From an uncultured Muribaculaceae bacterium (GTDB lineage Bacteria > Bacteroidota > Bacteroidia > Bacteroidales > Muribaculaceae): DNA of 64,000 nt. The first letter of the stretch is position 1; each line of letters begins with the position of its first letter. The notes beneath the pieces were generated by a model that made no database searches, was not told where the DNA came from, and saw only the letters and a list, made by a program, of their open reading frames with translations. Shown here piece by piece: positions 5,610 through 50,311 of the stretch. Position numbers and translations under genes: made by a program. The stretch lies in contig CAZHXA010000002.1 in assembly GCA_964536025.1 (NCBI GenBank), forward strand, positions 14,684 to 78,683, in the 5' to 3' direction.

Positions 5610-5649
5610 ATAAAAAACGATAAATTTAAACCTAAAATAATAAACTGAA

Positions 5650-8553
5650 ATGAAGAATTTAAAGCGAATTAGTGCATTGCTTTTTTCTATCATGCTTGGA
5701 ATGTCGGCCGTCAATGCCGTAGTGCCTCGATTGATGAGAAGTGTTGATGAAAAGGCTATGAACGAGTGGGTTGAAGCCCAATTCGGAAGAATGACTAAAG
5801 AGGAGCGTATAGCACAGCTTATGGTTATAGGTGTTTCTCCGAGAGTGAGCGGTGAAAAGATGGATTCTCTTCGTTACTTGGTGGAGACCTATAACATAGG
5901 GGGTCTTATTTTTCATGAAATGAGCATGAACGATTATGTGTCGTTATATAACGATTTCAGCAGACGTTCTCGTGTGCCGTTACTCATGACCATCGATGGT
6001 GAATGGGGGTTGGGTATGCGTATAGATGGTGTACGCGATTTCCCTCACAGTATGGCTTTGGGTGCTGTTACCGATAAAGACCTTATCTATGAATATGGAA
6101 AAGAAACTGCACGCCAAATGAAAACTGCTGGAATTCATGTGAATTTTGCTCCTGTTCTTGATGTAAACGACAATCCGTTGAATCCCGTTATAGGAAATCG
6201 TGCTTTTGGCGAAACTCCTGAATATGTGTCTTCTTATGCTCTTGAATATGCTGCCGGACTTGAAAGCGGTGGCGTGCTTTCCACTGGAAAACACTTTCCG
6301 GGACATGGCTCTACAAGCGAAGATTCTCACAAAAAGTTGCCTTCGGTGGAAAAATCTCTTGCCGACCTTGAATTGTGTGAATTGAAGCCGTTTGCCGATT
6401 ATATTGAGAAAGGTTTCGGTGGTATGCTTACTGCACACCTTAATGTTCCTGCCATCGATGCAAGCGGAAAGCCTGCTTCATTGAGTCCTGCTGTGGTAAA
6501 TCAGCTGTTGGTTAAGAAAATGGGCTTTGAAGGGCTGATTTTCACCGATGCACTTTCTATGAAAGGAGCAGTAACCGAGGGCTCTCGTTGCGTAGCTGCC
6601 CTCAAAGCAGGTAATGATGTGCTTCTTATGCCCGAAAATCCGCCTGTAGAAATTGCAGCTGTGATGGCTGCCGTGAAAAAAGGCGAACTTTCACAAAAAG
6701 TCATCAACAGATGTTGTAAAAAGATGCTTCGATATAAATATGTTCTCGGAGTGCTTAATTCCAAGCCTATCGATGTGAGTGTTTTGGAAAAAACTGCTTT
6801 TTCTCCCGAAACAGAGCTGTTAAATCATCGATTGACCGCAGCTTCTATCACCGTGTTGAAGAATCAAGCCGAATTGTTGCCATTCAAGGCTCTCGATAAG
6901 AAAAATATTGCTGTGATTTCACTTGGTGACACTAAGGGTGTTACAAGCATGTTCCAAGACCGTTGCGAAATGTATAGCAAAACAGGTAAATTTGCTTACA
7001 TGAAAGGAGCAATGCTTGACGTAATGCTTAAAAAGTTGAAACCTTATGATACCGTTATCGTTGGCGTTTATAATGCCGATGATGACTATGTTAAAGCTCT
7101 TGAAGCTATCGCTTCACAATGTGAAAATGTGGTACCGGCGTTCTTTACGAGTGCTTACGATGTTGCGAAGTTCAAAACCGGTATCGACAAATGTAAATCG
7201 CTTGTAATAGGGTGGAGTGCCGACGAATTGGCACAAGACTATGCCGCTCAAACCATTTACGGAGGTAATGCTGCAAAAGGTGTTTCGCCTATAACCATTG
7301 CCGGTGTGGCAAAACCCGGCGACGGAATAAGCTACGATGCTGTTCGCTTGGGTTATACCATCCCCGAAGAAGTGGGCGTGAGTAGCGAGATGTTGAACAA
7401 AATCGACCGTCTTGCCAATCGTTGTTTGCGTGCCGGAGCATTTCCGGGTTGTCAAGTGGTGATAGCTCGTCGCGGTAAAGTTATATGCAACAAGTCTTAC
7501 GGTATGATTGATTATGAAACAGGCATACCGGTTACCACCAACACTATTTACGACCTTGCTTCGGTGTCGAAGGCTACCGGTACTCTTCCGGGTATCATGA
7601 AGGCTTGTGATGACGGTTTGTTGAACGTTGATGCCAAAATGAGCAAATATTTGCCTGGTATGCGTCGCCCCGATAGAGAAAAACTTACTTTACGCGAATT
7701 CCTTTATCATGAAACCGGTTATGTGCCATCTTTACCTATATATGATATAATGACCGATAAAAACAAGAATTTGCGTTCCGACTTGGTATCAAAGGTAAAA
7801 AGTGAGAACTTCAGTATTCAAATAGGTGACAGTTTATTTGTGAGCAAAGCGGCATTTGACACTGTTATGCACAATGCTTACACCATTAATCTACGTCCCG
7901 ACAAGAGAATGCGTTACAGTTGTGTAAACTTCTGCTTGCTTATGGATGCCGAGCAACATGCCACCGGTGTTCCACATGATGAATATGTAACAAAGAATTT
8001 CTACGCACCGCTTGGAGCATGGCACACCACTTATCGCCCTATGGATAAATTTTCTCGTTGTCAGATAGCACCCACTGAGTATGACTCGTTTATGCGTAAA
8101 CAACTCGTTTGGGGATATGTACACGATGAAACCAATGCTTTTTCGGGTGGTGTGGCAGGTAATGCCGGTTTATTCTCTAATGCCAACGACTTGGCAAAAC
8201 TTTGTCAAATGTGGTTGAATGGCGGTGTTTATGGAGGTGAACGTTACTTGAGCGAAGCTGTTACACATCAATTCACTGTACAGAGAAGTGCAAATTCTCG
8301 TCGCGGATTAGGTTTTGACCGTGCTCCTGCCAAAAAAGGACAAGCTTCGCCCACTTGCAAGGAAGCTCCTGCCGAAACTTACGGACACTTGGGCTTTACT
8401 GGCACTGTGTTCTGGGTTGACCCTACACACGATGTGGTGTTTGTGTTCCTTAACAATCGTGTCAATCCTACAAGAAACAATGAGGCATTTGATTCTATCG
8501 ACATTCGTCCGTCGATGTTCCGTTTCTTCTATGAATCGCTTTTGGATAAGTGA
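5650..8553 (+). CDS. fusion protein: glycoside hydrolase family 3 (NagZ-like beta-N-acetylhexosaminidase) N-terminal half plus serine hydrolase / beta-lactamase-family C-terminal half
   Basis: 967 aa with a signal peptide. The N-terminal half has GH3 motifs (KHFPGHG; FTDALSMKG). The C-terminal half has an SxxK motif (ASVSKAT) and class C beta-lactamase / PBP-like sequence. Confidence 0.8.
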   Translation: MKNLKRISALLFSIMLGMSAVNAVVPRLMRSVDEKAMNEWVEAQFGRMTKEERIAQLMVIGVSPRVSGEKMDSLRYLVETYNIGGLIFHEMSMNDYVSLYNDFSRRSRVPLLMTIDGEWGLGMRIDGVRDFPHSMALGAVTDKDLIYEYGKETARQMKTAGIHVNFAPVLDVNDNPLNPVIGNRAFGETPEYVSSYALEYAAGLESGGVLSTGKHFPGHGSTSEDSHKKLPSVEKSLADLELCELKPFADYIEKGFGGMLTAHLNVPAIDASGKPASLSPAVVNQLLVKKMGFEGLIFTDALSMKGAVTEGSRCVAALKAGNDVLLMPENPPVEIAAVMAAVKKGELSQKVINRCCKKMLRYKYVLGVLNSKPIDVSVLEKTAFSPETELLNHRLTAASITVLKNQAELLPFKALDKKNIAVISLGDTKGVTSMFQDRCEMYSKTGKFAYMKGAMLDVMLKKLKPYDTVIVGVYNADDDYVKALEAIASQCENVVPAFFTSAYDVAKFKTGIDKCKSLVIGWSADELAQDYAAQTIYGGNAAKGVSPITIAGVAKPGDGISYDAVRLGYTIPEEVGVSSEMLNKIDRLANRCLRAGAFPGCQVVIARRGKVICNKSYGMIDYETGIPVTTNTIYDLASVSKATGTLPGIMKACDDGLLNVDAKMSKYLPGMRRPDREKLTLREFLYHETGYVPSLPIYDIMTDKNKNLRSDLVSKVKSENFSIQIGDSLFVSKAAFDTVMHNAYTINLRPDKRMRYSCVNFCLLMDAEQHATGVPHDEYVTKNFYAPLGAWHTTYRPMDKFSRCQIAPTEYDSFMRKQLVWGYVHDETNAFSGGVAGNAGLFSNANDLAKLCQMWLNGGVYGGERYLSEAVTHQFTVQRSANSRRGLGFDRAPAKKGQASPTCKEAPAETYGHLGFTGTVFWVDPTHDVVFVFLNNRVNPTRNNEAFDSIDIRPSMFRFFYESLLDK

Positions 8554-10079: not shown

Positions 10080-10137
10080 AAAGGTGAAAACTGAGAGGTG
10101 AAAGCTATTACATTTCATCTTTCAGTTTTCACCTTTT
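10080..10137 (+). terminator. long hairpin downstream of gdhA (15-bp perfect outer stem), probable terminator
   Basis: AAAGGTGAAAACTGA (10080..10094) pairs perfectly with TCAGTTTTCACCTTT (10122..10136), with further near-pairing inside the loop. Only a short T4 tract follows. Confidence 0.5.
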
Positions 10138-10439
10138 ATGCCGGAGGCATTATACGATGTATTAACCGACGCGTGAGAAAGACCGATAGGGCTTTCTCCA
10201 TGTGCGGTATACACACAGACCCCACCCCGACAGCAGTTTCCGGAGGAAACCATATAAAAAAAACAAGCAGAGGTCGGATTGTTCCGACCTCTGCTATATT
10301 TATTATCTATAAGTTTCGCTATTAAAGCACTACTTTGCTTGTGCGAGAACCTTGTTTCTTAATGAAAATACCATTTGATGGATTTTCTACCTTAACACCT
10401 TGCAAGTTGTAGTATTCCACAGGTGCGTTAGCATCTACA
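10132..10439. repeat. outer inverted repeat, left arm (308 bp)
   Basis: Reverse complement of 13194..13439. Identical over the last 118 nt of CDS, and nearly identical over the 3' UTR and terminator. Carries a 61-bp extra segment (10171..10231). Confidence 0.9.
10253..10294 (-). terminator. rho-independent terminator of the 10322..11467 gene
   Basis: GCAGAGGTCGGA-TTGT-TCCGACCTCTGC, followed by a T8 run on the minus strand. Confidence 0.8.
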
Positions 10440-11467
10440 TCAACAGTTTCGATAGCTGTAGTCAAGTTTTCTGGGACTGTAAATGTATATCTTGTAACAA
10501 ATTTATTTGGATGGAAATGGTAAATATATGCTTGGTTTTCTGAAAATTTTTGTACGGTCAAAGCTGTAATCTGTCCGGATGTAGTAGCACTTAAAGTTTC
10601 AGGAATAGTTGCTATAACTTTATCTGAGAAGCGGTCAACAATTTGGAAACCATCATAATAATTAGTTCCGGCAGGTTCTATAGTAAATAGTATGTTGTTA
10701 AATGTTACAACGTCATGACCTGCACTGGCATTTACATTTCCAACTCTATTATATGCAACCCATTTAGATGCAGTGTTTTGATAATATATGTCCTTATTTG
10801 AACGATTTCTAACTGTAATTTCATCACTTTCAGGCTCATTGGTTAATGGTTGTACTATCATTTGTGTATTGTTTGTAGCTGTTAGTGCAATAACTTTTGA
10901 CTTTTCTGCAACATATTCACCATTGGCAAAATAACACTTGATAATTTCTTTTGTGTTGTTTAAAGCAAAGAAGAAAGCACCACCGTCTTCGCTGAAAATA
11001 TCACCAACACCGCGTCCCATATAGTCCATACGTCCTATAGTAGCACCCAAATTTGTAAAAGATTCTGTCAAATCTATTTCGTTAGAAACTTTGTTTGTTG
11101 TTGCGTTCCATAGAACCACTTTGAAGTTAGTAGCAGCACCGTGTCCTGTCGATCTTACTACGGCATTACCTTTGCTATCAAAGTTGAAAGATGTACCTGC
11201 AGCTGTAATTCCTTCAACGGTTGAACGTTCTACTTTTTTAGTAGATTTATTGTAGGTAAAGCGATCTAATTTAGCATTCGTACCATATGTCTTCACATAA
11301 ATATCACCGTTGTAACCTGAACCGAAAATTGCACTTGATGTAGGAACATCTGTAGAAGTCCAATCCTTTGTAAGTGTGAAGCCTTTAGCTACACCCTCTA
11401 CTGCTGTTTGAGCGTTTAGTGAAGCCGAAAGGGCTAAAACGCAAATTGAAAGTAAAACTTTTTTCAT
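10322..11467 (-). CDS. secreted T9SS cargo protein, function unknown (beta-rich, propeller-like)
   Basis: 381 aa. Signal peptide MKKVLLSICVLALSASLNAQ. C-terminal Por-secretion-tail-like domain (VEYYNLQGVKVENPSNGIFIKKQGSRTSKVVL). Confidence 0.75.
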   Translation of the reverse strand: MKKVLLSICVLALSASLNAQTAVEGVAKGFTLTKDWTSTDVPTSSAIFGSGYNGDIYVKTYGTNAKLDRFTYNKSTKKVERSTVEGITAAGTSFNFDSKGNAVVRSTGHGAATNFKVVLWNATTNKVSNEIDLTESFTNLGATIGRMDYMGRGVGDIFSEDGGAFFFALNNTKEIIKCYFANGEYVAEKSKVIALTATNNTQMIVQPLTNEPESDEITVRNRSNKDIYYQNTASKWVAYNRVGNVNASAGHDVVTFNNILFTIEPAGTNYYDGFQIVDRFSDKVIATIPETLSATTSGQITALTVQKFSENQAYIYHFHPNKFVTRYTFTVPENLTTAIETVDVDANAPVEYYNLQGVKVENPSNGIFIKKQGSRTSKVVL

Positions 11468-11486
11468 TTCCTTAAGTTTTTAGATT
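11451..11486. repeat. inner inverted repeat, left copy (36 bp, perfect)
   Basis: Exact reverse complement of 11718..11753. Covers the first 17 nt of CDS plus 19 nt of leader of gene 10322..11467. Confidence 0.95.
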
Positions 11487-11612
11487 AGTAATAATTAATT
11501 GTTTATATAAAAAATAAATATTTTACTTAATTTCCTCTTTAAGTACGCTAAAATCATTATTTTCGGCGGTATCCCCAAATTCCCGCCAATCATTAATAGG
11601 TTTTATGTGTTG

Positions 11613-11644
11613 CAAAGCTATAAATTTTAAAACTAATGAGCAAA
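11613..11644 (-). promoter_or_regulatory. full Bacteroidetes-type promoter (TTTG-N20-TAGCTTTG) pointing toward gene 10322..11467
   Basis: On the minus strand, TTTG is at 11644..11641 and TAGCTTTG(CA) at 11620..11613, with a 20-nt spacer, 146 nt from the ATG at 11467. A second -7 box, TAGATTTG, lies at 11693..11686. Confidence 0.55.
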
Positions 11645-11687
11645 TATTTGAACAAAAAAAGTTTAAATAGTTTTCAAAATGTTCTCA

Positions 11688-11701
11688 AATCTAAAAACTT
11701 A
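11688..11701. repeat. partial third copy (14 nt, AATCTAAAAACTTA) of the inner repeat, direct relative to the right copy
   Basis: Read directly; identical to 11718..11731. Confidence 0.8.
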
Positions 11702-11717
11702 GAGATAATATTTCCTG

Positions 11718-11753
11718 AATCTAAAAACTTAAGGAAATGAAAAAAGTTTTACT
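11718..11753. repeat. inner inverted repeat, right copy (36 bp, perfect)
   Basis: AATCTAAAAACTTAAGGAAATGAAAAAAGTTTTACT. Covers the leader plus ATG plus the first codons (MKKVLL) of gene 11737..13311. Confidence 0.95.
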
Positions 11754-13311
11754 AAGTTCTATTTTGGCATTGGGTAGCCTATGTACCTTAAATGCTCAAA
11801 TGACTAAAGGCGTACAAGCTCGTATCTATGCTTATGGTTTGCAACAAACTAAAGGTCAGGCTGTGGTAGAAAATGGTAGTATAGCTTCTTACACTTTGAC
11901 ATTCAAAACCAACACTGCTGCAACTTCTGCAAAAGTTAATTTGATGAAAGGTGAAACCGTTGTAGCAAGTTTTGAGGCTGAAGCAACCGATGCAACTAAA
12001 AAATCATGGAAAGCTGTAGTAAATGCAAGCAAGGTAGGAGAAGCCGGCACTTATACATGGGAAGCCGAAGTTTCAGCTCCTGCAGTAAAAAGCTGGGCTA
12101 CAATCTCAGATCATACAAATAACAAAGATAATTTTGTTTTTTACCGTTCTTACGGATTGGCTATTGATAATAATCCGGAAAATGATGCATTTGGAACAAT
12201 TTATGCTGTAAACCAAGCAACAGCCGCCAACTATACTAAGGGTATAGGTATGTGGACTTACAGTCCTGAATTGACATTACTAAACAACTCTCCTTATTCA
12301 ATTGAAGGCGTGATTGGAGATAAAAATACTGGAGAGTCTCCTTCTGATATGGCAATCGACTCTAAGGGTCTTTTGTATTTGTCAAATAACTCAACTAATG
12401 GATCAGGTGTTTATGTTGTTGATCCTACTCAAAATTACAGTGCAAAACAAATATTTGAAGGAACTCGCGAAAATGGTGTAATTAAAGATACTGACGGTAA
12501 CGAGATTTCGTCTATGGTTGCTGCTGTAGGAGTATATGGCAAAGATTCCGATAGAGAGATCTTTACTATTGATAATGCAACAGGTGGAGTTACTGATTTT
12601 TATATTAAGAGATATGAAATAGGTTCTCAGGAAACTTGGAACACTGAAGCAAGCTTTAAACAAAATAAATTTGCTATTTCTGAAACAGGAACCATGTCTA
12701 TTGTTAATAAAAATTGTGCTATAGAACCAATCGCAGAAGGTTATTGGATTTCTCAATATAGAACAGCAACATCAAAGAATGAACCTCTTTTAGCATTTAT
12801 CAACAATAATAATGAAGTAAAATATAACTATAATTTAGCTAATGACAGCTTTACCGGAAGTTCTCAAAACGGAGCTATTGCTGTTGATGAAAAGACTAAG
12901 ACTGTAGCGGTTGCTAGTGCTAATAATGTTATTATAATGAATTACAATATAGCTACAGATGGGAAAGTTACAACTTCAAATGAAAAAACTTACTCACTTA
13001 CAGACAATCATCGTCGTCCTAATGATATGGCTTTCGACTATGCCGGAAACTTGTATAGTGTAACTTCAAACAAAGAAACACTAAGTGTGTGGTCAGTTCC
13101 TACAGAAAATAATATATGCAAAACTCCTGCAAAGAGCACCATGACTATCGAAATTACTTCAAGCGATATTCAAACAGGTGTTGAAGAAGTGGGTGTAGAT
13201 GCTAACGCACCTGTGGAATACTACAACTTGCAAGGTGTTAAGGTAGAAAATCCATCAAATGGTATTTTCATTAAGAAACAAGGTTCTCGCACAAGCAAAG
13301 TAGTGCTTTAA
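11737..13311 (+). CDS. secreted T9SS cargo protein, function unknown (NHL/beta-propeller-like repeats)
   Basis: 524 aa. Signal peptide MKKVLLSSILALGSLCTLNAQ. Repeat-like segments SPSDMAIDSKGLLYLSN and RPNDMAFDYAGNLYSVT. The C-terminal 39 aa are identical to those of the 10322..11467 product. Confidence 0.75.
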   Translation: MKKVLLSSILALGSLCTLNAQMTKGVQARIYAYGLQQTKGQAVVENGSIASYTLTFKTNTAATSAKVNLMKGETVVASFEAEATDATKKSWKAVVNASKVGEAGTYTWEAEVSAPAVKSWATISDHTNNKDNFVFYRSYGLAIDNNPENDAFGTIYAVNQATAANYTKGIGMWTYSPELTLLNNSPYSIEGVIGDKNTGESPSDMAIDSKGLLYLSNNSTNGSGVYVVDPTQNYSAKQIFEGTRENGVIKDTDGNEISSMVAAVGVYGKDSDREIFTIDNATGGVTDFYIKRYEIGSQETWNTEASFKQNKFAISETGTMSIVNKNCAIEPIAEGYWISQYRTATSKNEPLLAFINNNNEVKYNYNLANDSFTGSSQNGAIAVDEKTKTVAVASANNVIIMNYNIATDGKVTTSNEKTYSLTDNHRRPNDMAFDYAGNLYSVTSNKETLSVWSVPTENNICKTPAKSTMTIEITSSDIQTGVEEVGVDANAPVEYYNLQGVKVENPSNGIFIKKQGSRTSKVVL

Positions 13312-13439
13312 TAGCGAAACTTATAGATAATAAATATAGCAGAGGTCGGATTGCTCCGACCTCTGCTTGTTTTTTTATATGATTTCCTCCGGAAACTGCT
13401 GTCGGTTAAGACACCGTGTAATGCCTCCGGCATAAAAGG
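13194..13439. repeat. outer inverted repeat, right arm (246 bp)
   Basis: Reverse complement of 10132..10439 (see left arm). Confidence 0.9.
13339..13376 (+). terminator. rho-independent terminator of gene 11737..13311
   Basis: GCAGAGGTCGGA-TTGC-TCCGACCTCTGC followed by TTGTTTTTTT. Confidence 0.85.
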
Positions 13440-13445
13440 AGGTGT

Positions 13446-15023
13446 TTAAAAAGGTACGGGGTCTTCGCCTTTAGACATTAGAAAGTCTTCGTTTCGTGGC
13501 GGTAGATTTTCGGGCATAGGCACATTCATCATAGGAGCATTATCATTGGCAGGAGGATTGTCATCGTTCATCTTAGAACCCATAGGTTCGGTGTATTCGC
13601 TTCTGATAGAAGTGTAATTATCGTCCCAATTGTCAAATCGTGCAAATTGTCCTACGAAACGCAACTTGATGTCATCAACCGAACCACTACGGTGCTTGGC
13701 AACGATGAATTCGGCAAGTCCGCGAATGTCGTTCCCCTCGCTGTCTTCCGATGCTTTGGTGTAATATTCCGGGCGGTGAATGAAACACACAATATCGGCA
13801 TCTTGCTCAATGGCACCCGATTCACGCAAGTCGGATAGCTGAGGGCGTTTCCCATCGGTACGGTTTTCCACGCTACGGTTCAACTGCGACAATGCTATGA
13901 TAGGTATAGATAATTCTTTAGCCAATTGCTTTAACGAACGCGAAATCATACTTACTTCTTGTTCACGGCTTCCGAATTTCATGCCACTTGCATTCATCAA
14001 CTGCAAATAGTCTATTATGATGATTTTCACGCCATGTTCACGCACGAGTCGTCGAGCTTTGGTTCTCAATTCAAAAACCGACAAGCTCGGTGTGTCATCG
14101 ATGTATAGCGGTGCAGAATAAAGCATTTTAATCTTTGTCATCAACTTATCCCATTCAAATTGTGATAACTGACCGCTTTTAATCTTTTCGCTTTCAAGTT
14201 CGCACACGTTACTTATAAGACGATTGACAAGCTGGAGATTTGACATTTCCAGAGAGAAAATAGCGACCGGAGAGTTGAAGTTTACCGCCATATTTTTTGC
14301 CATAGATAGCACAAAAGCCGTTTTACCCATTGCCGGACGTGCCGCAATTATAATCAAGTCGCTTTCTTGCCAACCCGAAGTAAGTTTGTCCAACTTGTGG
14401 TATCCTGTTTGCAAACCGCTCAATCCACTTTCTCTATTTGCGGCATCTTCAATCTTTTTTATAGCTTCGCTTATGACAGGGTCAATCTGCGTAACGTCCT
14501 TTTTTACATTATGTTGAGTGATCTCAAAAAGTCGCCCTTCGGCTTCTTGTAAAAGGTCATCGACATCGTTAGATTCGTCGAAAGCTTTGGTCTCAATAGA
14601 AGAACAAAATGTGATAAGTTCACGAGCAAGATACTTTTGAGCTACAATGCGAGCGTGATACTCCACATTGGCAGCACTCGACACACGTCCTGTGAGTTCG
14701 GAAATACGTAAAGCTCCCCCCACAGCATCCAAATTACCGTCGAGACGCAACTGCTCGGTTACGGTAAGCATGTCGATGGGTCGCTGCATGGCACCAAGAG
14801 CCTGAATAGAAGCGTAAATTTTTTGGTTGCGTGCATCGTAGAAGCTCTCGGGCTTTAAAATGTCACACACTACCACATAAGCATCTTTTTCAAGCATTAA
14901 TGCACCCAATACGGCTTCTTCCAAATCGGTGTCTTGAGGTTGCAATTTACCTATTTCGAGCATTGCTTTGTCTTGCTTTCTCGACTGTTTGTAATTGTTG
15001 TACGGTCTATCTTCGTTTGCCAT
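13446..15023 (-). CDS. dnaB: replicative DNA helicase DnaB
   Basis: Walker A (ARPAMGKTAF) and typical DnaB N- and C-domains. Start re-called to the ATG at 15023 (MANEDR...) because the track TTG at 15050 lies inside the -7 box. Has a low-complexity P/N-rich C-terminal tail. Confidence 0.95.
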   Translation of the reverse strand: MANEDRPYNNYKQSRKQDKAMLEIGKLQPQDTDLEEAVLGALMLEKDAYVVVCDILKPESFYDARNQKIYASIQALGAMQRPIDMLTVTEQLRLDGNLDAVGGALRISELTGRVSSAANVEYHARIVAQKYLARELITFCSSIETKAFDESNDVDDLLQEAEGRLFEITQHNVKKDVTQIDPVISEAIKKIEDAANRESGLSGLQTGYHKLDKLTSGWQESDLIIIAARPAMGKTAFVLSMAKNMAVNFNSPVAIFSLEMSNLQLVNRLISNVCELESEKIKSGQLSQFEWDKLMTKIKMLYSAPLYIDDTPSLSVFELRTKARRLVREHGVKIIIIDYLQLMNASGMKFGSREQEVSMISRSLKQLAKELSIPIIALSQLNRSVENRTDGKRPQLSDLRESGAIEQDADIVCFIHRPEYYTKASEDSEGNDIRGLAEFIVAKHRSGSVDDIKLRFVGQFARFDNWDDNYTSIRSEYTEPMGSKMNDDNPPANDNAPMMNVPMPENLPPRNEDFLMSKGEDPVPF

Positions 15024-15047
15024 TTCTACATTTTTGTTTTCTCTGTG

Positions 15048-15055
15048 CAAAGTTA
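15048..15055 (-). promoter_or_regulatory. -7 box TAACTTTG for dnaB
   Basis: CAAAGTTA on the plus strand, 25 nt upstream of the ATG at 15023. Confidence 0.5.
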
Positions 15056-15151
15056 ATGAAACGCTGTTTATAACAAAAACTATTCACCTTAATATTCCTC
15101 ACATTTTTTTCACAGTATTGTTCACAATGTGATAATATGAAAAGTATTTTG

Positions 15152-15159
15152 TAATTTTG
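15152..15159 (+). promoter_or_regulatory. -7 box TAATTTTG for ispE
   Basis: TAATTTTGCA 24 nt upstream of the ATG at 15183; divergent from the dnaB promoter. Confidence 0.5.
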
Positions 15160-15182
15160 CATCTGCTAAAATCATAAAATAC

Positions 15183-16004
15183 ATGATAAAATTTCCTAAC
15201 GCCAAGATAAATTTGGGTCTCGACATAGTGAATCGACGTCCCGATGGATACCACGACATAGAAACAGTGTTTTATCCCATAGCATTGCAAGATATAGTGG
15301 AGATAGTGCCGGCTCGTGGCAGTGAAACTACACTCACAACCTATGGCAGAGTGATAGATTGCCCTATGGAAAAAAATCTTGTGGTTAAGGCTTATCGCTT
15401 GATGGAAAAAGAGTTTGATTTGCCACCGGTGGATATTTATTTGCATAAAAATATCCCCGATGGAGCCGGATTGGGTGGAGGATCTTCAGATGCGGCAAAT
15501 GTGTTGCTCGCACTCAATGAGATGTTTGAACTTAACCTCACAAAAGAAGAACTTGCCAAGCGAGCCGCACGTTTGGGTGCCGATTGTGCTTTTTTTATTT
15601 ATAACAGCCCGATGATGGCAACCGGAATAGGTGATGTGTTGTCTCCAATAGACGTGCCTTTGCATGGTAAAACGTTGCTGTTGGTAAAACCCGACGTGAG
15701 TGTGCCTACTGCCGAAGCCTATTCAAGAGTTACGCCTCGCAAGAGTGACACTCCGCTTGCCGAAGTTATAAAAATGCCTATCGACAAGTGGAAAAACGCT
15801 TTGAAAAACGATTTTGAGCCGAGTGTATTTTCGACACACCCTGAATTGAGTGAAATAAAGGATAAAATCAAGCAGTCGGGAGCCGTTTATGCTTCAATGA
15901 GTGGCTCAGGTTCATCGATTTTCGGCATTTTTGAAAGTGCCAATATGGCAGAAAAAGCCAAAAAAATATTTGAAGGGATGAATTCTTATGTTATAAATCT
16001 CTAA
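15183..16004 (+). CDS. ispE: 4-diphosphocytidyl-2-C-methyl-D-erythritol kinase
   Basis: 273 aa. N-terminus has AKINLGL, and the GHMP kinase motif PDGAGLGGGSSDAA is present. Confidence 0.9.
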   Translation: MIKFPNAKINLGLDIVNRRPDGYHDIETVFYPIALQDIVEIVPARGSETTLTTYGRVIDCPMEKNLVVKAYRLMEKEFDLPPVDIYLHKNIPDGAGLGGGSSDAANVLLALNEMFELNLTKEELAKRAARLGADCAFFIYNSPMMATGIGDVLSPIDVPLHGKTLLLVKPDVSVPTAEAYSRVTPRKSDTPLAEVIKMPIDKWKNALKNDFEPSVFSTHPELSEIKDKIKQSGAVYASMSGSGSSIFGIFESANMAEKAKKIFEGMNSYVINL

Positions 16005-16146
16005 AAGGGAAGTAGTCAAGCAAGACATTTGCTATTAATGTGTCATTTTGGCAATGTTTTTGCTAATAACAATTTTACATGCGACAAATCGCGTCCGGAT
16101 TTGTCGTAAATTGGTATAATTGCAAAAAATAAAGAACACTATATAT

Positions 16147-16716
16147 ATGAGTAACAAGGAAGATTTAAAAAACGAAGAAACAGTAAACGAAGTGGAAGAA
16201 ACAGCCGAAAAAGAGGCGGTTGCTGAGGAAAACGCACAGGAACAACCTGTAGAAGCTACTCCGGAAGAACGTATAGCCGACTTGGAAGCTAAACTTGAAA
16301 AAGAAAAGAAAGAATATATGTTCTTGATGGCGGAATTTGACAATTTCCGCAAACGTTCGATAAAAGACAAAGCCGAAATCATTAAAAACGGTGCAGAAAA
16401 CGCAATGCGTAACATTTTGCCAATAATCGACGATTTCGACCGAGCAATCGAAGCCAATGCCAAAAGCGATGACGTGGAAGCCCTTCGTGAAGGTGTGGAA
16501 CTTATATATAATAAGTTCGTTAAATATCTTGAAAGCAACGGTGTAAAAGAAATGAAAACCACGGGGGAAACATTTGATGCCGACGTGCATGAGGCTGTAA
16601 CAACATTCCCTGCTCCAAGCGAAGACTTGAAAGGCAAGATTATCGACACGGTGCAAAAAGGCTATTCCATCAACGATAAAGTGTTGCGACACGCTAAAGT
16701 TGTGGTTGGTCAATAA
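16147..16716 (+). CDS. grpE: nucleotide exchange factor GrpE
   Basis: Acidic N-terminus, a GrpE core (AEFDNFRKR ... V.KGY....KVLR.A.V.V), and position directly before dnaJ. Start re-called to the ATG at 16147. Confidence 0.9.
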   Translation: MSNKEDLKNEETVNEVEETAEKEAVAEENAQEQPVEATPEERIADLEAKLEKEKKEYMFLMAEFDNFRKRSIKDKAEIIKNGAENAMRNILPIIDDFDRAIEANAKSDDVEALREGVELIYNKFVKYLESNGVKEMKTTGETFDADVHEAVTTFPAPSEDLKGKIIDTVQKGYSINDKVLRHAKVVVGQ

Positions 16717-16743
16717 TTTTTTATTCAACAAAACAATCACACA

Positions 16744-17925
16744 ATGGAAAAAAGAGACTACTACGAAGTGCTTGGTGTTGCAAAAACAGCAACAGCCGAT
16801 GAATTGAAAAAAGCATATCGTAAAAAGGCTATTGAATATCATCCCGACCGTCAGCAAGGTAAAAGCGAAGAGGAAAAGAAGGCTGCCGAAGAAAAATTCA
16901 AGGAAGCAGCTGAGGCTTATGACGTGTTGAGTAATCCCGATAAACGTGCAAGATATGACCAATACGGTCACGCCGGAATGAATGGCGGTGGTTTTGGCGG
17001 AGCAGGTGGCTTTGGCGGAGCGGGAATGTCAATGGAAGACATTTTTAGCCACTTTGGCGACATCTTTGGTGGTGGCTTCGGCGGTTTTAGTGGCTTTGGC
17101 GGTGGTGGTCGTCGTGGTGGCGGTCGTCGTCGTCAAAATGTAGGTGACGATTTGCGTATCACCGTGCATGTATCACTTAAAGATGTAGCACACGGCTTGA
17201 CAAAGAAAATCAAGATTCCACGCTATGTTTCTTGTAAGACTTGTAACGGAACAGGTGCTGAAAACGGAACCGATTTCACTACATGCTCGGCTTGTAACGG
17301 TAGCGGTACACAAATACGCACACAACAAACCATGTTCGGCATGATGCAATCAGAAACCGTATGCCCCAACTGTCATGGTGAGGGTCGCATAATCAACCAT
17401 AAATGTAAGGATTGTGGTGGAGAGGGTGTTGTTAAGAGCGAAGATGTGGTAACTATAAACATTCCTGCAGGTGTTGCCGATGGAAATATGTTACGCATGC
17501 AAGGCAAGGGTAATGCACCACGTCATGGTGGAATTTCTGGCGATTTGCTTATTGTGATAGCCGAAGATAAAGACCCTGAATTGATTCGCGACGAAAACAA
17601 TATCATTTATAACTTGATGATAGATTTCCCGACAGCCGTTTTCGGTGGAAAAGTGGAAGTGCCTACTATCGACGGTGTGGCTCGTGTAACCATCGAACCG
17701 GGAACACAGCCGGGCAAAGTGTTGCGATTGAAAGGTAAAGGTTTACCTTCTCCTAATTATTATGGTACGGGCGACGAATATATCAATATATCTGTTTATG
17801 TGCCTGAAACACTTAATAAGGAAGAACGTGAAGCTATAGAGAAACTTCGCGACAGTGAAAATATAAGGCCTACTGAGGAGAAAAAGAAATCTATTTTTCA
17901 ACGCATGAGCGATTTCTTTCAATAA
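16744..17925 (+). CDS. dnaJ: molecular chaperone DnaJ
   Basis: J domain with HPD (YHPDR), a G/F-rich region, and four CxxCxGxG zinc-finger repeats. Confidence 0.95.
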
Positions 17926-17994
17926 ACAGTAAAATGACATCTTGATTTATTAAGAAGGCGTTTAGGTACTGCCTTTTGTGGGTGATGAGATAGA

Positions 17995-18027
17995 GAAACG
18001 ATGTGAATCAAAGATTCACATCGTTTC
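17995..18027 (+). terminator. hairpin downstream of dnaJ
   Basis: GAAACGATGTGAATC-AAA-GATTCACATCGTTTC, a perfect 15-bp stem; the T tract is weak. Confidence 0.5.
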
Positions 18028-18254
18028 ATCGTTTATATTGTAGATAGCTTAGTAGAAACTGAAATGTTAAAACTCATAACTGAAAACAGAGTGGTTAATG
18101 TCTTCGGCATTTCTTTGTTATTCAAAAAACACTATCTCCACTAAATTTCTACTGACCCCAAATTCTTTATGTTTAGGTTGGCAACACTATACTCTTGACA
18201 CCGTCTCCGCCCACCGAAAAAAAAACGCTGACTCCTTTTTGGGGGTAGGGGGAT

Positions 18255-18292: not shown

Positions 18293-18377
18293 TGGTGCGC
18301 ATGAAGGGACTCGAACCCCCACGTCTCTCGACACTAGATCCTAAGTCTAGCGCGGCTACCAATTACGCCACATGCGC
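18293..18377 (-). tRNA. tRNA-Leu (anticodon UAG), type II with long variable arm, CCA encoded
   Basis: Manual fold: acceptor GCGCATG/CATGCGC, anticodon stem CTAGA/TCTAG with loop CTTAGGA, variable arm GTGTCGAGAGACGT, T loop TTCGAGT. Confidence 0.85.
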
Positions 18378-18388
18378 AAATCCGAATG

Positions 18389-18418
18389 CAAAGGTACGCA
18401 TTATTTTTAAACTACAAA
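18389..18418 (-). promoter_or_regulatory. promoter of tRNA-Leu (TTTG-N18-TACCTTTG)
   Basis: CAAAGGTA at 18389..18396 and CAAA at 18415..18418 on the plus strand. Confidence 0.5.
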
Positions 18419-50156: not shown

Positions 50157-50157
50157 G

Positions 50158-50231
50158 CGGTGCGTACGGGACTCGAACCCGTGACCCCCTGCGTGACAGG
50201 CAGATATTCTAACCAACTGAACTAACGCACC
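50158..50231 (-). tRNA. tRNA-Asp (anticodon GUC); CCA not encoded
   Basis: Manual fold: GGTGCGT/ACGCACC acceptor, D arm GTTC-AGTTGGTTA-GAAT, anticodon stem TCTGC/GCAGG with loop CTGTCAC, T arm ACGGG-TTCGAGT-CCCGT. Confidence 0.9.
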
Positions 50232-50280: not shown

Positions 50281-50311
50281 CAAAGGTACGACATTTTTTT
50301 TAATATGCAAA
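50281..50311 (-). promoter_or_regulatory. promoter of tRNA-Asp (TTTG-N19-TACCTTTG)
   Basis: CAAAGGTA at 50281..50288 and CAAA at 50308..50311 on the plus strand. Same TGCAAAGGTACG core as the tRNA-Leu promoter. Confidence 0.55.

Follow-up and report, generated by a model that had tools for sequence, protein, structure and literature searches.

The 64,000-nt stretch of Muribaculaceae DNA analysed here (the window) contains a locus that very probably operates as a DNA-inversion switch, in which a single promoter is shared by two divergent target genes, A and B. Recombination between two identical 36-nt arms would flip the 231-bp segment enclosed by them (11487–11717) and would keep both reading frames. 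The promoter on this segment is predicted to read into gene A in the orientation found in the window, and in the flipped orientation it would read into gene B at an equal distance and through the same conserved end of the 5′ UTR, the gene not faced by the promoter staying promoterless. Transcription would follow orientation, flipping would be frequent within a population, and a recombinase encoded elsewhere would catalyse the flip. We infer from the promoter consensus that expression of A and B would be mutually exclusive. Because both are predicted to be fast-evolving secreted proteins with a common signal peptide and C-terminal module, such a switch would alternate two surface or secreted variants.

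Architecture of the locus

In the left arm of the inner repeat (11451–11486), the putative crossover region for inversion, the ATG of gene A is preceded by 19 nt of leader and followed by 14 nt of coding sequence; the right arm (11718–11753) holds the corresponding part of gene B, from its leader through the start codon into the first codons. The arms lie 231 nt apart, are 100% complementary, and lose all identity immediately on either side, as had been noticed in an earlier reading of the sequence alone. That sequence-only reading described each arm as 19 nt of leader, the ATG and the first five codons (MKKVLL); the leader and start codon are as described, whereas the coding part after the ATG amounts to four full codons plus 2 nt of codon six. 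With up to three mismatches allowed, the repeat matched the 64-kb window at two places only, which are the two arms, versus no match in 100 shuffled sequences. The 14-nt partial third copy, corresponding to the inner end of the repeat, was also found where it had been reported (11688–11701, plus strand), 30 nt upstream of the right arm and in direct orientation relative to it; it is present in the related metagenome contig L001 and absent from the other lineages. Each inner arm carries an internal dyad, AAAACTT-N13-AAGTTTT.

It had been pointed out that occurrence of the same repeat in front of many genes would indicate a shared leader and not a recombination site. This was not the case, since among 107 Muribaculaceae loci a 28-mer core of the repeat was limited to the window and L001. 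JGI metagenomes scanned with the 28-mer gave no occurrence and no related switch, and a second scan of JGI metagenomes with a degenerate ON-junction motif, which proved to be a common AT-rich Bacteroidetes leader, likewise gave no related switch. Between lineages the repeat shares only the generic Bacteroidetes leader and the MKKxLL codons, and no conserved recombinase site can be named.

A scan of the region 11440–11765 with the pattern TTTG-N17-23-TAnnTTTG gave a single perfect match, TTTG-N20-TAGCTTTG, on the minus strand at 11644..11613. This match lies inside the 231-bp segment and points at gene A, 146 nt from its ATG, and it is the only consensus promoter in the 269-bp intergenic region between A and B; its activity is predicted from the consensus only, with an expected transcription start near 11606 on the minus strand. 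The motif scan also returned the additional perfect −7 box TAGATTTG (11693..11686, minus strand), which is without a −33 element, and on the plus strand, toward gene B, only boxes that match at seven of eight positions (TAAATTTT, AATATTTG and TAGTTTTC), all in agreement with the earlier reading. These weaker boxes could allow some expression of the putative OFF gene. Perfect promoter matches number 12 in the 64-kb window, compared with 3.6 in simulations, and the same consensus is found directly upstream of tRNA-Leu, tRNA-Asp and DnaB. A sigma-70-type promoter scan gave 12 matches versus 11.7 expected and is uninformative for this phylum.

The promoter-distal end of the segment, AGTAATAATTAATTG (11487–11501), reads ...AATTATTACT on the minus strand and would join the 5′ UTR of the ON gene. 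This conserved end faces the target gene of the promoter in the window and in the related contigs L001, L109, L110 and L113. A promoter with 20-nt spacing and a perfect −7 box is aimed at the conserved ATTACT end in the window, L001 and L113, and reading of the L109/L110 sequence by eye gave the same arrangement. The TTATTACTAAT leader also occurs in members of the family that have fixed promoters. The predicted fold of the 5′ UTR is no better than those of shuffled sequences (z = −0.7), which speaks against an attenuator or other structured leader, and an Rfam search gave no match at the locus.

A second inverted repeat, about 300 nt long, surrounds both genes (10132–10459 versus 13174–13439); this outer repeat spans the common 3′ ends of the genes, the terminators and REP-like hairpins. 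The sequence-only reading makes no mention of it. The left outer arm (10257–10459) extends over 203 nt that are 94% complementary to the right outer arm (13174–13376) and contains the 3′ end of gene A, encoding the C-terminal module, together with a terminator hairpin with a 13-bp stem (10266–10295, minus strand), which is predicted as a terminator on either strand; the right arm contains the 3′ end of gene B and the corresponding hairpin (13338–13367, plus strand). The distal part of the left arm (10132–10262) consists of REP-like palindromic units (ATGCC-GGA-GGCAT ... GTTTCC-GGA-GGAAAC), of which about 56 nt (10171–10226) are missing from the right arm. The distal part of the right arm (13370–13439) also contains REP-like hairpin units and adjoins the stop codon of DnaB (13446). 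Further copies of the REP-like units are found in the related contig L117 on either side of a Y1_Tnp gene.

Products of the two genes

Gene A (10322–11467, minus strand) encodes 381 aa with a predicted signal peptide, a β-propeller and, at the C-terminus, a conserved module about 40 aa long; this gene is predicted to be ON in the window. Gene B (11737–13311, plus strand) encodes 524 aa with a predicted signal peptide and the same C-terminal 40 aa as A, and is predicted to be OFF in the window and ON in L001. The product of gene A is modelled as a β-propeller by AlphaFold2 with a pLDDT of 84.7, and the Foldseek matches of this model are propellers; for gene B there are weak propeller-like Pfam matches only. 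The dN/dS ratio relative to L117 is 0.70 for gene A, and the ratio for gene B is 0.36.

The description of the two products as T9SS cargo found no support in profile searches, in which their C-terminal domains matched no T9SS sorting-domain profile. When the type A sorting domain (TIGR04183/Por_Secre_tail) was looked for, neither A nor B had any NCBIfam match at E ≤ 1. In Pfam, the C-terminal 54 aa had no match at E ≤ 10, and the full-length proteins had none at E ≤ 0.01. The C-terminal module has low confidence in the structure model. It is carried by predicted proteins of Muribaculaceae numbering more than 560, so that it may act as some form of sorting signal. Assignment of A and B as DUF6383 proteins was considered on account of a distant homologue, P0027 (named DUF6383 domain protein at NCBI), which matches PF19910 over residues 567–629, and was rejected since neither A nor B matches that profile. 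Exact-protein look-ups of A and B gave no match, and a protein cluster look-up gave no names or accessions for the proteins.

Orientation of the segment in related strains

A look-up of the neighbouring gene gdhA led to the key metagenome contig, L001/L117, whose flanks are about 95% identical to the window and in which the flanking genes, A and B are collinear with those of the window, the match of the flanks continuing as far as the arms. The flipped state, which the sequence-only reading had proposed to look for in related strains, was found in this contig: the segment between the 36-nt repeats matches that of the window (96%) solely as its reverse complement. The end of the spacer with the sequence ...TTATTACT adjoins A in the window and B in L001. 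As had been anticipated, the promoter moves to an equal distance, lying 145 nt upstream of gene B in L001 versus 146 nt upstream of A in the window, and with identical arms and the same ORFs in either orientation, inversion leaves both genes intact. The switch is 96.4% identical between the window and the L001/L117 strain, with all four arms identical and a synonymous divergence of 0.14–0.23, and in this comparison was shown to be conserved above the level of synonymous sites. Three nested rearrangements distinguish the window from L001, namely those of the promoter segment, of the 3.3-kb module and of an 8-kb block from DnaB to DnaJ.

Two more lineages of Muribaculaceae have the same architecture elsewhere on the chromosome, again in flipped states, with opposite orientations in L109 versus L110/L111 and in L108 versus L113. 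L109 contains a divergent pair with a 40-nt repeat over both ATGs; the arms of this repeat are separated by 199 nt, and the 3′ ends of the two genes carry outer repeats. The spacer of L110 is inverted and 95% identical relative to that of L109, whereas the adjacent gene is just 80% identical, and the single mismatch in the repeat moves together with the spacer; the agreement of L111 in orientation rests on 7 nt. L113 has a perfect 38-nt repeat, and the spacer end beside its A-type gene is the one found beside the partner gene in L108. Repeats that span the start codons are exclusive to these loci among 89 divergent gene pairs at about 110 loci. A relative without the partner gene (L115/L116) has no repeat and a fixed promoter, and at the P0016 loci of another species (10 contigs) the paralogues are in tandem, not divergent, and have no repeats. 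A profile search of genome contigs with the family alignment was dominated by the C-terminal module, did not return the orthologous locus and served as a background set only; it contained no other divergent pair with start-spanning repeats.

Both orientations therefore exist across three lineages, between strains or samples and not within one clone. The flips were seen between strains at least about 5% diverged, with the addition of one suggestive contig end: the first base of the MEGAHIT k141 contig L119 coincides with that of the perfect core of the repeat, a start that is possibly the graph branch expected from mixed orientations. The rate of switching could be low. Logan contigs (k = 31) break at the 36-nt repeat and cannot span the arms, so orientation is not readable from them. 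The strain is present at 99.95% identity in samples SRR19576305, SRR17221325 and SRR17221327, and an identical DnaB occurs in SRR17221322, SRR22923256, SRR19576313, SRR17221341 and SRR17221330.

Candidate recombination mechanisms

The window contains no recombinase gene, as the earlier reading had stated: no ORF of at least 170 aa matches a recombinase family, and the Pfam lists of the remaining genes gave none either. No such gene was found within 6–8 kb of the related loci, nor in or beside the locus in any of the four lineages. The repeat consensus of the Bacteroides fragilis invertase Mpi, ARACGTWCGT, is absent at the locus. The chances that a trans-acting site-specific recombinase flips the segment appear to be about even. 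Arms of 36–40 bp could also undergo rare recombination by general homologous recombination without a dedicated system, and flipping by RecA-type recombination between the short arms is conceivable, if on the doubtful side. A more elaborate proposal, which we consider unlikely, is that of a conserved Muribaculaceae promoter-toggle cassette with crossover at the translation-initiation regions, driven by an unlinked and undescribed recombinase, or by a mechanism linked to the REP-like hairpins and to the Y1 (RAYT-like) transposase that neighbours the module, instead of the known Bacteroides invertases, in which the nested outer repeats would add programmed levels of inversion.

Alternative explanations

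The locus might instead be a static inverted duplication, in which the 5′ and 3′ ends of the genes are kept alike by selection together with occasional gene conversion and rare inversions by homologous recombination have been fixed by drift, with no regulatory role. Such a history would fit with the outer repeat, which makes the whole module a quasi-palindrome, with the resemblance of the leader to the general leader of the protein family and of other Bacteroidetes genes, with the failure to find a recombinase in the window or beside the related loci, and with flips seen only between diverged strains. It is difficult to reconcile with one consensus promoter for two genes that have just 19 nt of private leader each, since without flipping one of them would never be expressed, whereas neither strain shows a disrupted ORF for A or B. 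The independent recurrence of the flip in three lineages argues against it as well, as do the perfect, sharp-edged cores of 36–40 nt retained in four lineages despite 8–20% divergence of the coding sequence next to them, the conservation of the entire spacer above that of synonymous sites, and the L115/L116 relative, in which partner gene and repeat are both missing and the promoter is fixed. We consider a static duplication quite unlikely.

A different role for the repeats, as operator or translation-control sites through which a leader-binding factor co-regulates two genes with fixed divergent promoters, is suggested by the inclusion of the translation start region in the identical leaders, by the dyad inside each arm and by the weak seven-of-eight −7 boxes on the plus strand. 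This explanation is very improbable: it leaves the physical inversion of the segment in related strains unaccounted for, a second consensus promoter was not found, and the predicted 5′ UTR is without significant structure (z = −0.7). That the orientation differences are assembly artefacts, from contigs mis-joined at short inverted repeats, is hardly tenable even though all of the comparison sequences are metagenome contigs and several end at or near the repeats, because repeats of 36–40 nt are shorter than the reads and far shorter than the final k of 141 (L001, L109 and L111), so that each junction is covered by unique k-mers, because the inversions are clean, and have their breakpoints exactly within the repeats, in each of three independent pairs obtained from different samples and with different assemblers, and because a choice made by the assembler would itself imply both types of junction in the reads.

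Significance

Muribaculaceae are abundant gut bacteria and mostly uncultured, and to our knowledge their surface variation has hardly been studied. The switch proposed here would be a concrete and easily assayed case, in which one promoter serves either of two fast-evolving, predicted secreted proteins, and the module is found in at least three lineages, at differing positions on the chromosome. Orientation could be scored in existing metagenomes from counts of junction reads, and such scores would permit tests of orientation against host, phage pressure and inflammation, as for Bacteroides invertons. Pipelines limited to purely intergenic repeats may overlook switches with arms that reach into start codons.

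Comparison with known inversion systems

Promoter inversion between inverted repeats is common in Bacteroidales (PMC10939037). The locus resembles the invertons of that order, such as the B. fragilis PSA–PSH promoters and the PhaseFinder loci (PMC10939037, PMC8748976), in that repeats flank a short intergenic segment, that an internal TTTG/TAnnTTTG promoter points, by its consensus, toward a flanking gene, and that both orientations exist; the switches control secreted or surface products, the recombinase need not adjoin, and the taxonomic order is the same. These invertons usually provide an ON/OFF control of one operon with repeats wholly upstream of the gene, whereas at this locus two divergent paralogues supply the repeats with their own leaders and start codons, so that an A/B switch is expected rather than an ON/OFF switch. 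The locus also differs in the absence of the Mpi consensus, in that no recombinase gene was found in or beside it, and in its host family, Muribaculaceae. A full-text literature search returned no paper combining Muribaculaceae, invertible and phase variation, and related searches gave no Muribaculaceae example. Shufflons and other inversion systems acting on coding sequence, mentioned for Bacteroidales (PMC10939037), also have repeats that overlap coding sequence and yield alternative protein variants; here, in contrast, no coding segment is exchanged, and both ORFs are identical in either orientation.

In the vpma locus of Mycoplasma agalactiae and the vsp locus of M. bovis (PMC2268961), as here, a unique promoter serves alternative surface-protein genes with a highly conserved 5′ UTR and signal-peptide region and very divergent mature parts. 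Recombination at vpma takes place within the conserved 5′ region, at positions −1 to −72, and leaves the coding sequence untouched (PMC2268961), whereas the block of identity described here continues through the start codon and 14 nt into the coding sequence. The vpma locus has six genes and an adjacent, dedicated tyrosine recombinase, Xer1, that is needed for switching, compared with two genes and no adjacent recombinase here. Its products are lipoproteins of a wall-less bacterium, while in this Gram-negative gut bacterium at least gene A is predicted to encode a β-propeller.

In design, the locus is closest to vpma of Mycoplasma and sap of Campylobacter fetus, both of which use a single promoter. 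In C. fetus, the invertible element with the sole sapA promoter is flanked by homologues in opposite orientation; their conserved 5′ ends, start codons included, serve as the inverted repeats, and variants of the surface protein alternate. The sap element extends over several kb, the conserved 5′ regions measure hundreds of bp, and its inversion is largely RecA-dependent. The present locus would share with it the single invertible promoter and the use of homologue 5′ ends as repeats, and differs in the size of the arms (36–40 bp) and of the segment (about 200–230 bp). The promoter-inversion toggle thus most likely belongs to a known type, of which the Muribaculaceae example is new to the literature searched.

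The probable A/B switch and its promoter

The A/B switch, made up of two inner arms and the promoter segment between them, most likely functions as a promoter-inversion phase-variation switch, of a type common in Bacteroidales. Genes A (10322..11467, minus strand, 381 aa) and B (11737..13311, plus strand, 524 aa) diverge from a 231-bp segment flanked by arms of 36 nt each (11451-11486 and 11718-11753) with 100% complementarity. Each arm belongs to one of the two genes and consists of its ATG with 19 nt of leader before it and 14 nt of coding sequence after it, and the identity stops sharply at both edges; only these 2 copies with at most 3 mismatches are found in the 64 kb (shuffles, 0/100). 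A scan of region 11440-11765 for the form TTTG-N17-23-TAnnTTTG returned a single perfect promoter, TTTG-N20-TAGCTTTG at 11644..11613 on the minus strand, together with a second perfect -7 box on that strand (11693..11686) without a -33 element, and the plus strand has no -7 box better than 7/8. The sequence-only reading of this locus, which had described perfect, sharp-edged 36-bp repeats, one full promoter on the minus strand only, an extra -7 box with 7/8 boxes opposite and a partial third repeat copy of 14 nt at 11688-11701, is borne out in these respects, and the third copy is real.

The consensus is a meaningful promoter predictor in this genome. Perfect matches number 12 in the whole window versus 3.6 in Markov simulations, and they include sites directly upstream of DnaB, tRNA-Leu (promoter 18418..18389, minus strand; tRNA 18377..18293) and tRNA-Asp (promoter 50311..50281, minus strand; tRNA 50231..50157). 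The two tRNA sites, with gaps of ~12-50 nt to the tRNA, provide an internal check. A GC-rich hairpin, GGCGG-N13-CCGCC at 11566-11590, is located in the part of the invertible segment predicted as 5' UTR; the related locus L001 shares it, and it is missing from the switches of three more distant loci (L109, L110 and L113). The predicted 5' UTR as a whole folds no better than shuffles.

Inversion of the segment in a related contig

Related contigs were obtained by exact-protein look-up of the neighbouring gdhA. One of them, ENA ERZ27271044 k141_504139 (loci L001 and L117), has housekeeping genes ~95% identical to those of the window and carries both A (80% amino acid identity) and B (90%). In BLAST and pairwise alignments its flanks are collinear with those of the window and identical as far as the 36-nt arms, which are themselves identical, and the 231-bp segment (96%) can be aligned only as its reverse complement. 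Of the two spacer ends, ...AATTAATTATTACT adjoins A in the window but B in L001, and ...GAGATAA(T/C)(A/T)TTTCCT(G/T) adjoins B in the window but A in L001. The promoter of L001 occupies plus-strand positions 14468-14499 and is separated from the downstream gene B by 145 nt. The flipped state, for which a comparison of orthologues had been proposed, is thus present in this contig.

When the switch segments were aligned promoter-forward, those of the window, L001 and L113 each had a -7 box with no mismatch, at 20-nt spacing from a -33 box matching at 3 or 4 of 4 positions; the equivalent site of L109/L110, CTTG-N20-TAAATTTG, was read by eye and is not listed by the strict scan. All of these promoters face one conserved end of the segment, ...ATTACT, with the repeat after it. 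The TTATTACTAAT leader also stands upstream of family members with fixed promoters, and the leader ATTACTAATTTAA(A/C)AACT...ATG with an MKK-type signal peptide is found in JGI metagenome contigs L136, L142 and L144, which are unrelated, Bacteroidetes-like and have no inverted repeat. The conserved ON-side junction is therefore a generic leader and not switch-specific. Since the promoter always faces this end, whose leader is shared with fixed-promoter genes, the ON gene would gain a normal 5' UTR from the segment, and the OFF gene would be left with the 19-nt leader alone and no consensus promoter.

Module layout and encoded proteins

A second inverted repeat, missed by the sequence-only reading, encloses both genes. 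Its outer arms (10257-10459 and 13174-13376; 203 nt, 94% complementary) are extended outward by the paired blocks 10132-10170 with 13401-13439 and 10227-10262 with 13370-13405, giving a full extent of 10132-10459 versus 13174-13439, with ~56 extra nt (10171-10226) in the left arm. They cover the identical last 40 aa of A and B, a terminator hairpin with a 13-bp stem 3' of each gene, and ~100 nt of palindromic REP-like units. Because A and B share their 3' ends within these arms, the locus is a 3.3-kb quasi-palindromic module, ordered outer arm, gene A, inner arm, promoter segment, inner arm, gene B, outer arm. Besides its inner and outer arms, the whole window contains no inverted repeats of at least 30 nt. 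Equivalent outer repeats are also present in L109 and L108.

The C-terminal module common to A and B, VDANAPVEYYNLQGVKVxNPxxGIFIKKQGxxxxKVVL (~40 aa; 10322-10445 in A, 13189-13311 in B, and also in loci L028-L107), recurs among Muribaculaceae species representatives in >560 predicted proteins whose N-terminal domains vary. No Pfam or NCBIfam model matches it, T9SS sorting domains and DUF6383 included, and for lack of a sorting-domain match the earlier label of T9SS cargo is unproven; the module could plausibly serve in sorting or anchoring. The AlphaFold2 model of the gene A product, built on a 19-sequence alignment, is a beta-propeller (pLDDT 84.7) with generic propeller matches only in Foldseek (TM ~0.5), and the Pfam hits of gene B are weak and propeller-like.

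Recurrence in other lineages

Homologues of gene A with ~56% identity occur in modules of the same type at unrelated chromosomal sites. The source names of homologues, together with the related loci, place the window in a Muribaculaceae MAG. L109 contains a divergent pair with a 40-nt repeat (one mismatch) across both ATGs and 199 nt between the arms; at the 3' ends of its genes are outer repeats of 154 nt and 58 nt. Relative to the A-type gene, the spacer of L110 (another sample) has the opposite orientation: its reverse complement is 95% identical to the L109 spacer, compared with just 80% for the adjacent gene. The one repeat mismatch, located close to the inner end, moves with the spacer, which places the crossover within the 37-nt perfect core; L111 agrees with L110 over its 7 retained nt. 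The repeat of L113 is a perfect 38-mer, and the spacer end that lies beside the partner gene in L108 is the one beside the A-type gene in L113, the remainder of the 647-nt L108 spacer being different and containing extra repeats. This spacer also holds three copies of a ~40-nt element (GGGTTTCCTGTTGT...GCGGTA) at 5620-5658, 5706-5747 and 5870-5911, one of them reversed with respect to the other two, suggestive of a small mobile or REP-like insertion inside the switch.

A natural switch-free version of the A gene family is provided by L115/L116 (300-720), where the A-type gene has an unrelated divergent neighbour, a perfect fixed promoter at 563-594 and no inverted repeat. Among 89 divergent gene pairs in ~110 Muribaculaceae loci, start-spanning repeats are confined to these modules, and, apart from L001, no other copy of the 28-nt core of the window's repeat was found in those loci or in JGI metagenomes. 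The 36 bp are thus not a common leader recurring in non-inverted contexts, a possibility raised by the sequence-only reading.

Recombination mechanism

No window ORF of at least 170 aa matches a recombinase family, nor do the Pfam lists of the remaining genes, in agreement with the earlier view that the window holds no recombinase gene; none was found within 6-8 kb of the related modules. The Mpi repeat consensus, taken as ARACGTWCGT, has no copy at the locus. The arms differ across lineages apart from the generic leader and MKKxLL codons, and their extent is alike in all, from about -19/-21 to +17/+20 with the ATG as reference. In Bacteroidales the recombinase usually acts in trans (PMC10939037), and inversion by such a trans-acting enzyme is the reading we prefer, with an even chance of being correct. 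RecA-type recombination between the 36-40-bp arms is a less likely but possible route.

The first base of L119 (MEGAHIT k141) coincides with that of the perfect repeat core, and L110 starts 2 nt inside the distal arm; in L119, L110 and L111, from three samples, position 1 lies at or within a few nt of the inner-repeat boundary. Where the final k of the assembler is known (k141 for L119 and L111), it far exceeds the length of the inner repeat. Such starts are the pattern expected from mixed orientations in a sample and give the sole hint of this kind.

Constraint and chromosomal context

Between the window and L117, gdhA, DnaB, DnaJ and DeoR have dS of 0.14-0.23 and dN/dS of 0-0.04, gene A has dS 0.16 and dN/dS 0.70, and gene B has dS 0.14 and dN/dS 0.36. 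Over the 303-bp switch 3.6% of positions differ, and the four arms show zero differences. The switch is thus more strongly constrained than synonymous sites, since 3.6% compares with a dS of 0.14-0.23, and the controlled proteins change quickly. A conserved switch with fast-changing proteins is usual for exposed, variable surface components.

The DnaB-ispE-GrpE-DnaJ block (window 13446-18034) is inverted and on the opposite side of the module relative to seven related contigs (L001-L007), and its junctions (window 10131-10152, 13440-13446 and 18034; L001 8437-8460 and 13039-13060) fall in the palindromic REP-like hairpin ATGCCGGAGGCAT. Converting one arrangement into the other takes a minimum of two inversions, including one that turns the entire module between its outer arms. 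In L117 (9670-10900), gene B is followed by a 194-aa Y1_Tnp gene (PF01797, RAYT/IS200-like) that is missing from the window. It is flanked by several further copies of the REP-like unit found on the outward side of the window's outer repeat. In L019 and L022-L027, too, Y1_Tnp genes closely follow the tandem paralogues. The block inversion and the Y1_Tnp gene with its REP-like units are treated as context, outside the switch proper.

Comparison with known systems

As far as a full-text literature search could find, this is the first such switch described for Muribaculaceae. Its closest designs are C. fetus sapA and Mycoplasma vpma/vsp. The sapA system works by promoter inversion and shares the single promoter. 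The vpma/vsp systems likewise have one promoter, with conserved 5' UTR and signal-peptide regions inside which recombination takes place (PMC2268961). In contrast to both, the A/B switch has no linked recombinase, serves two genes only, and extends its very short arms across the start codon.
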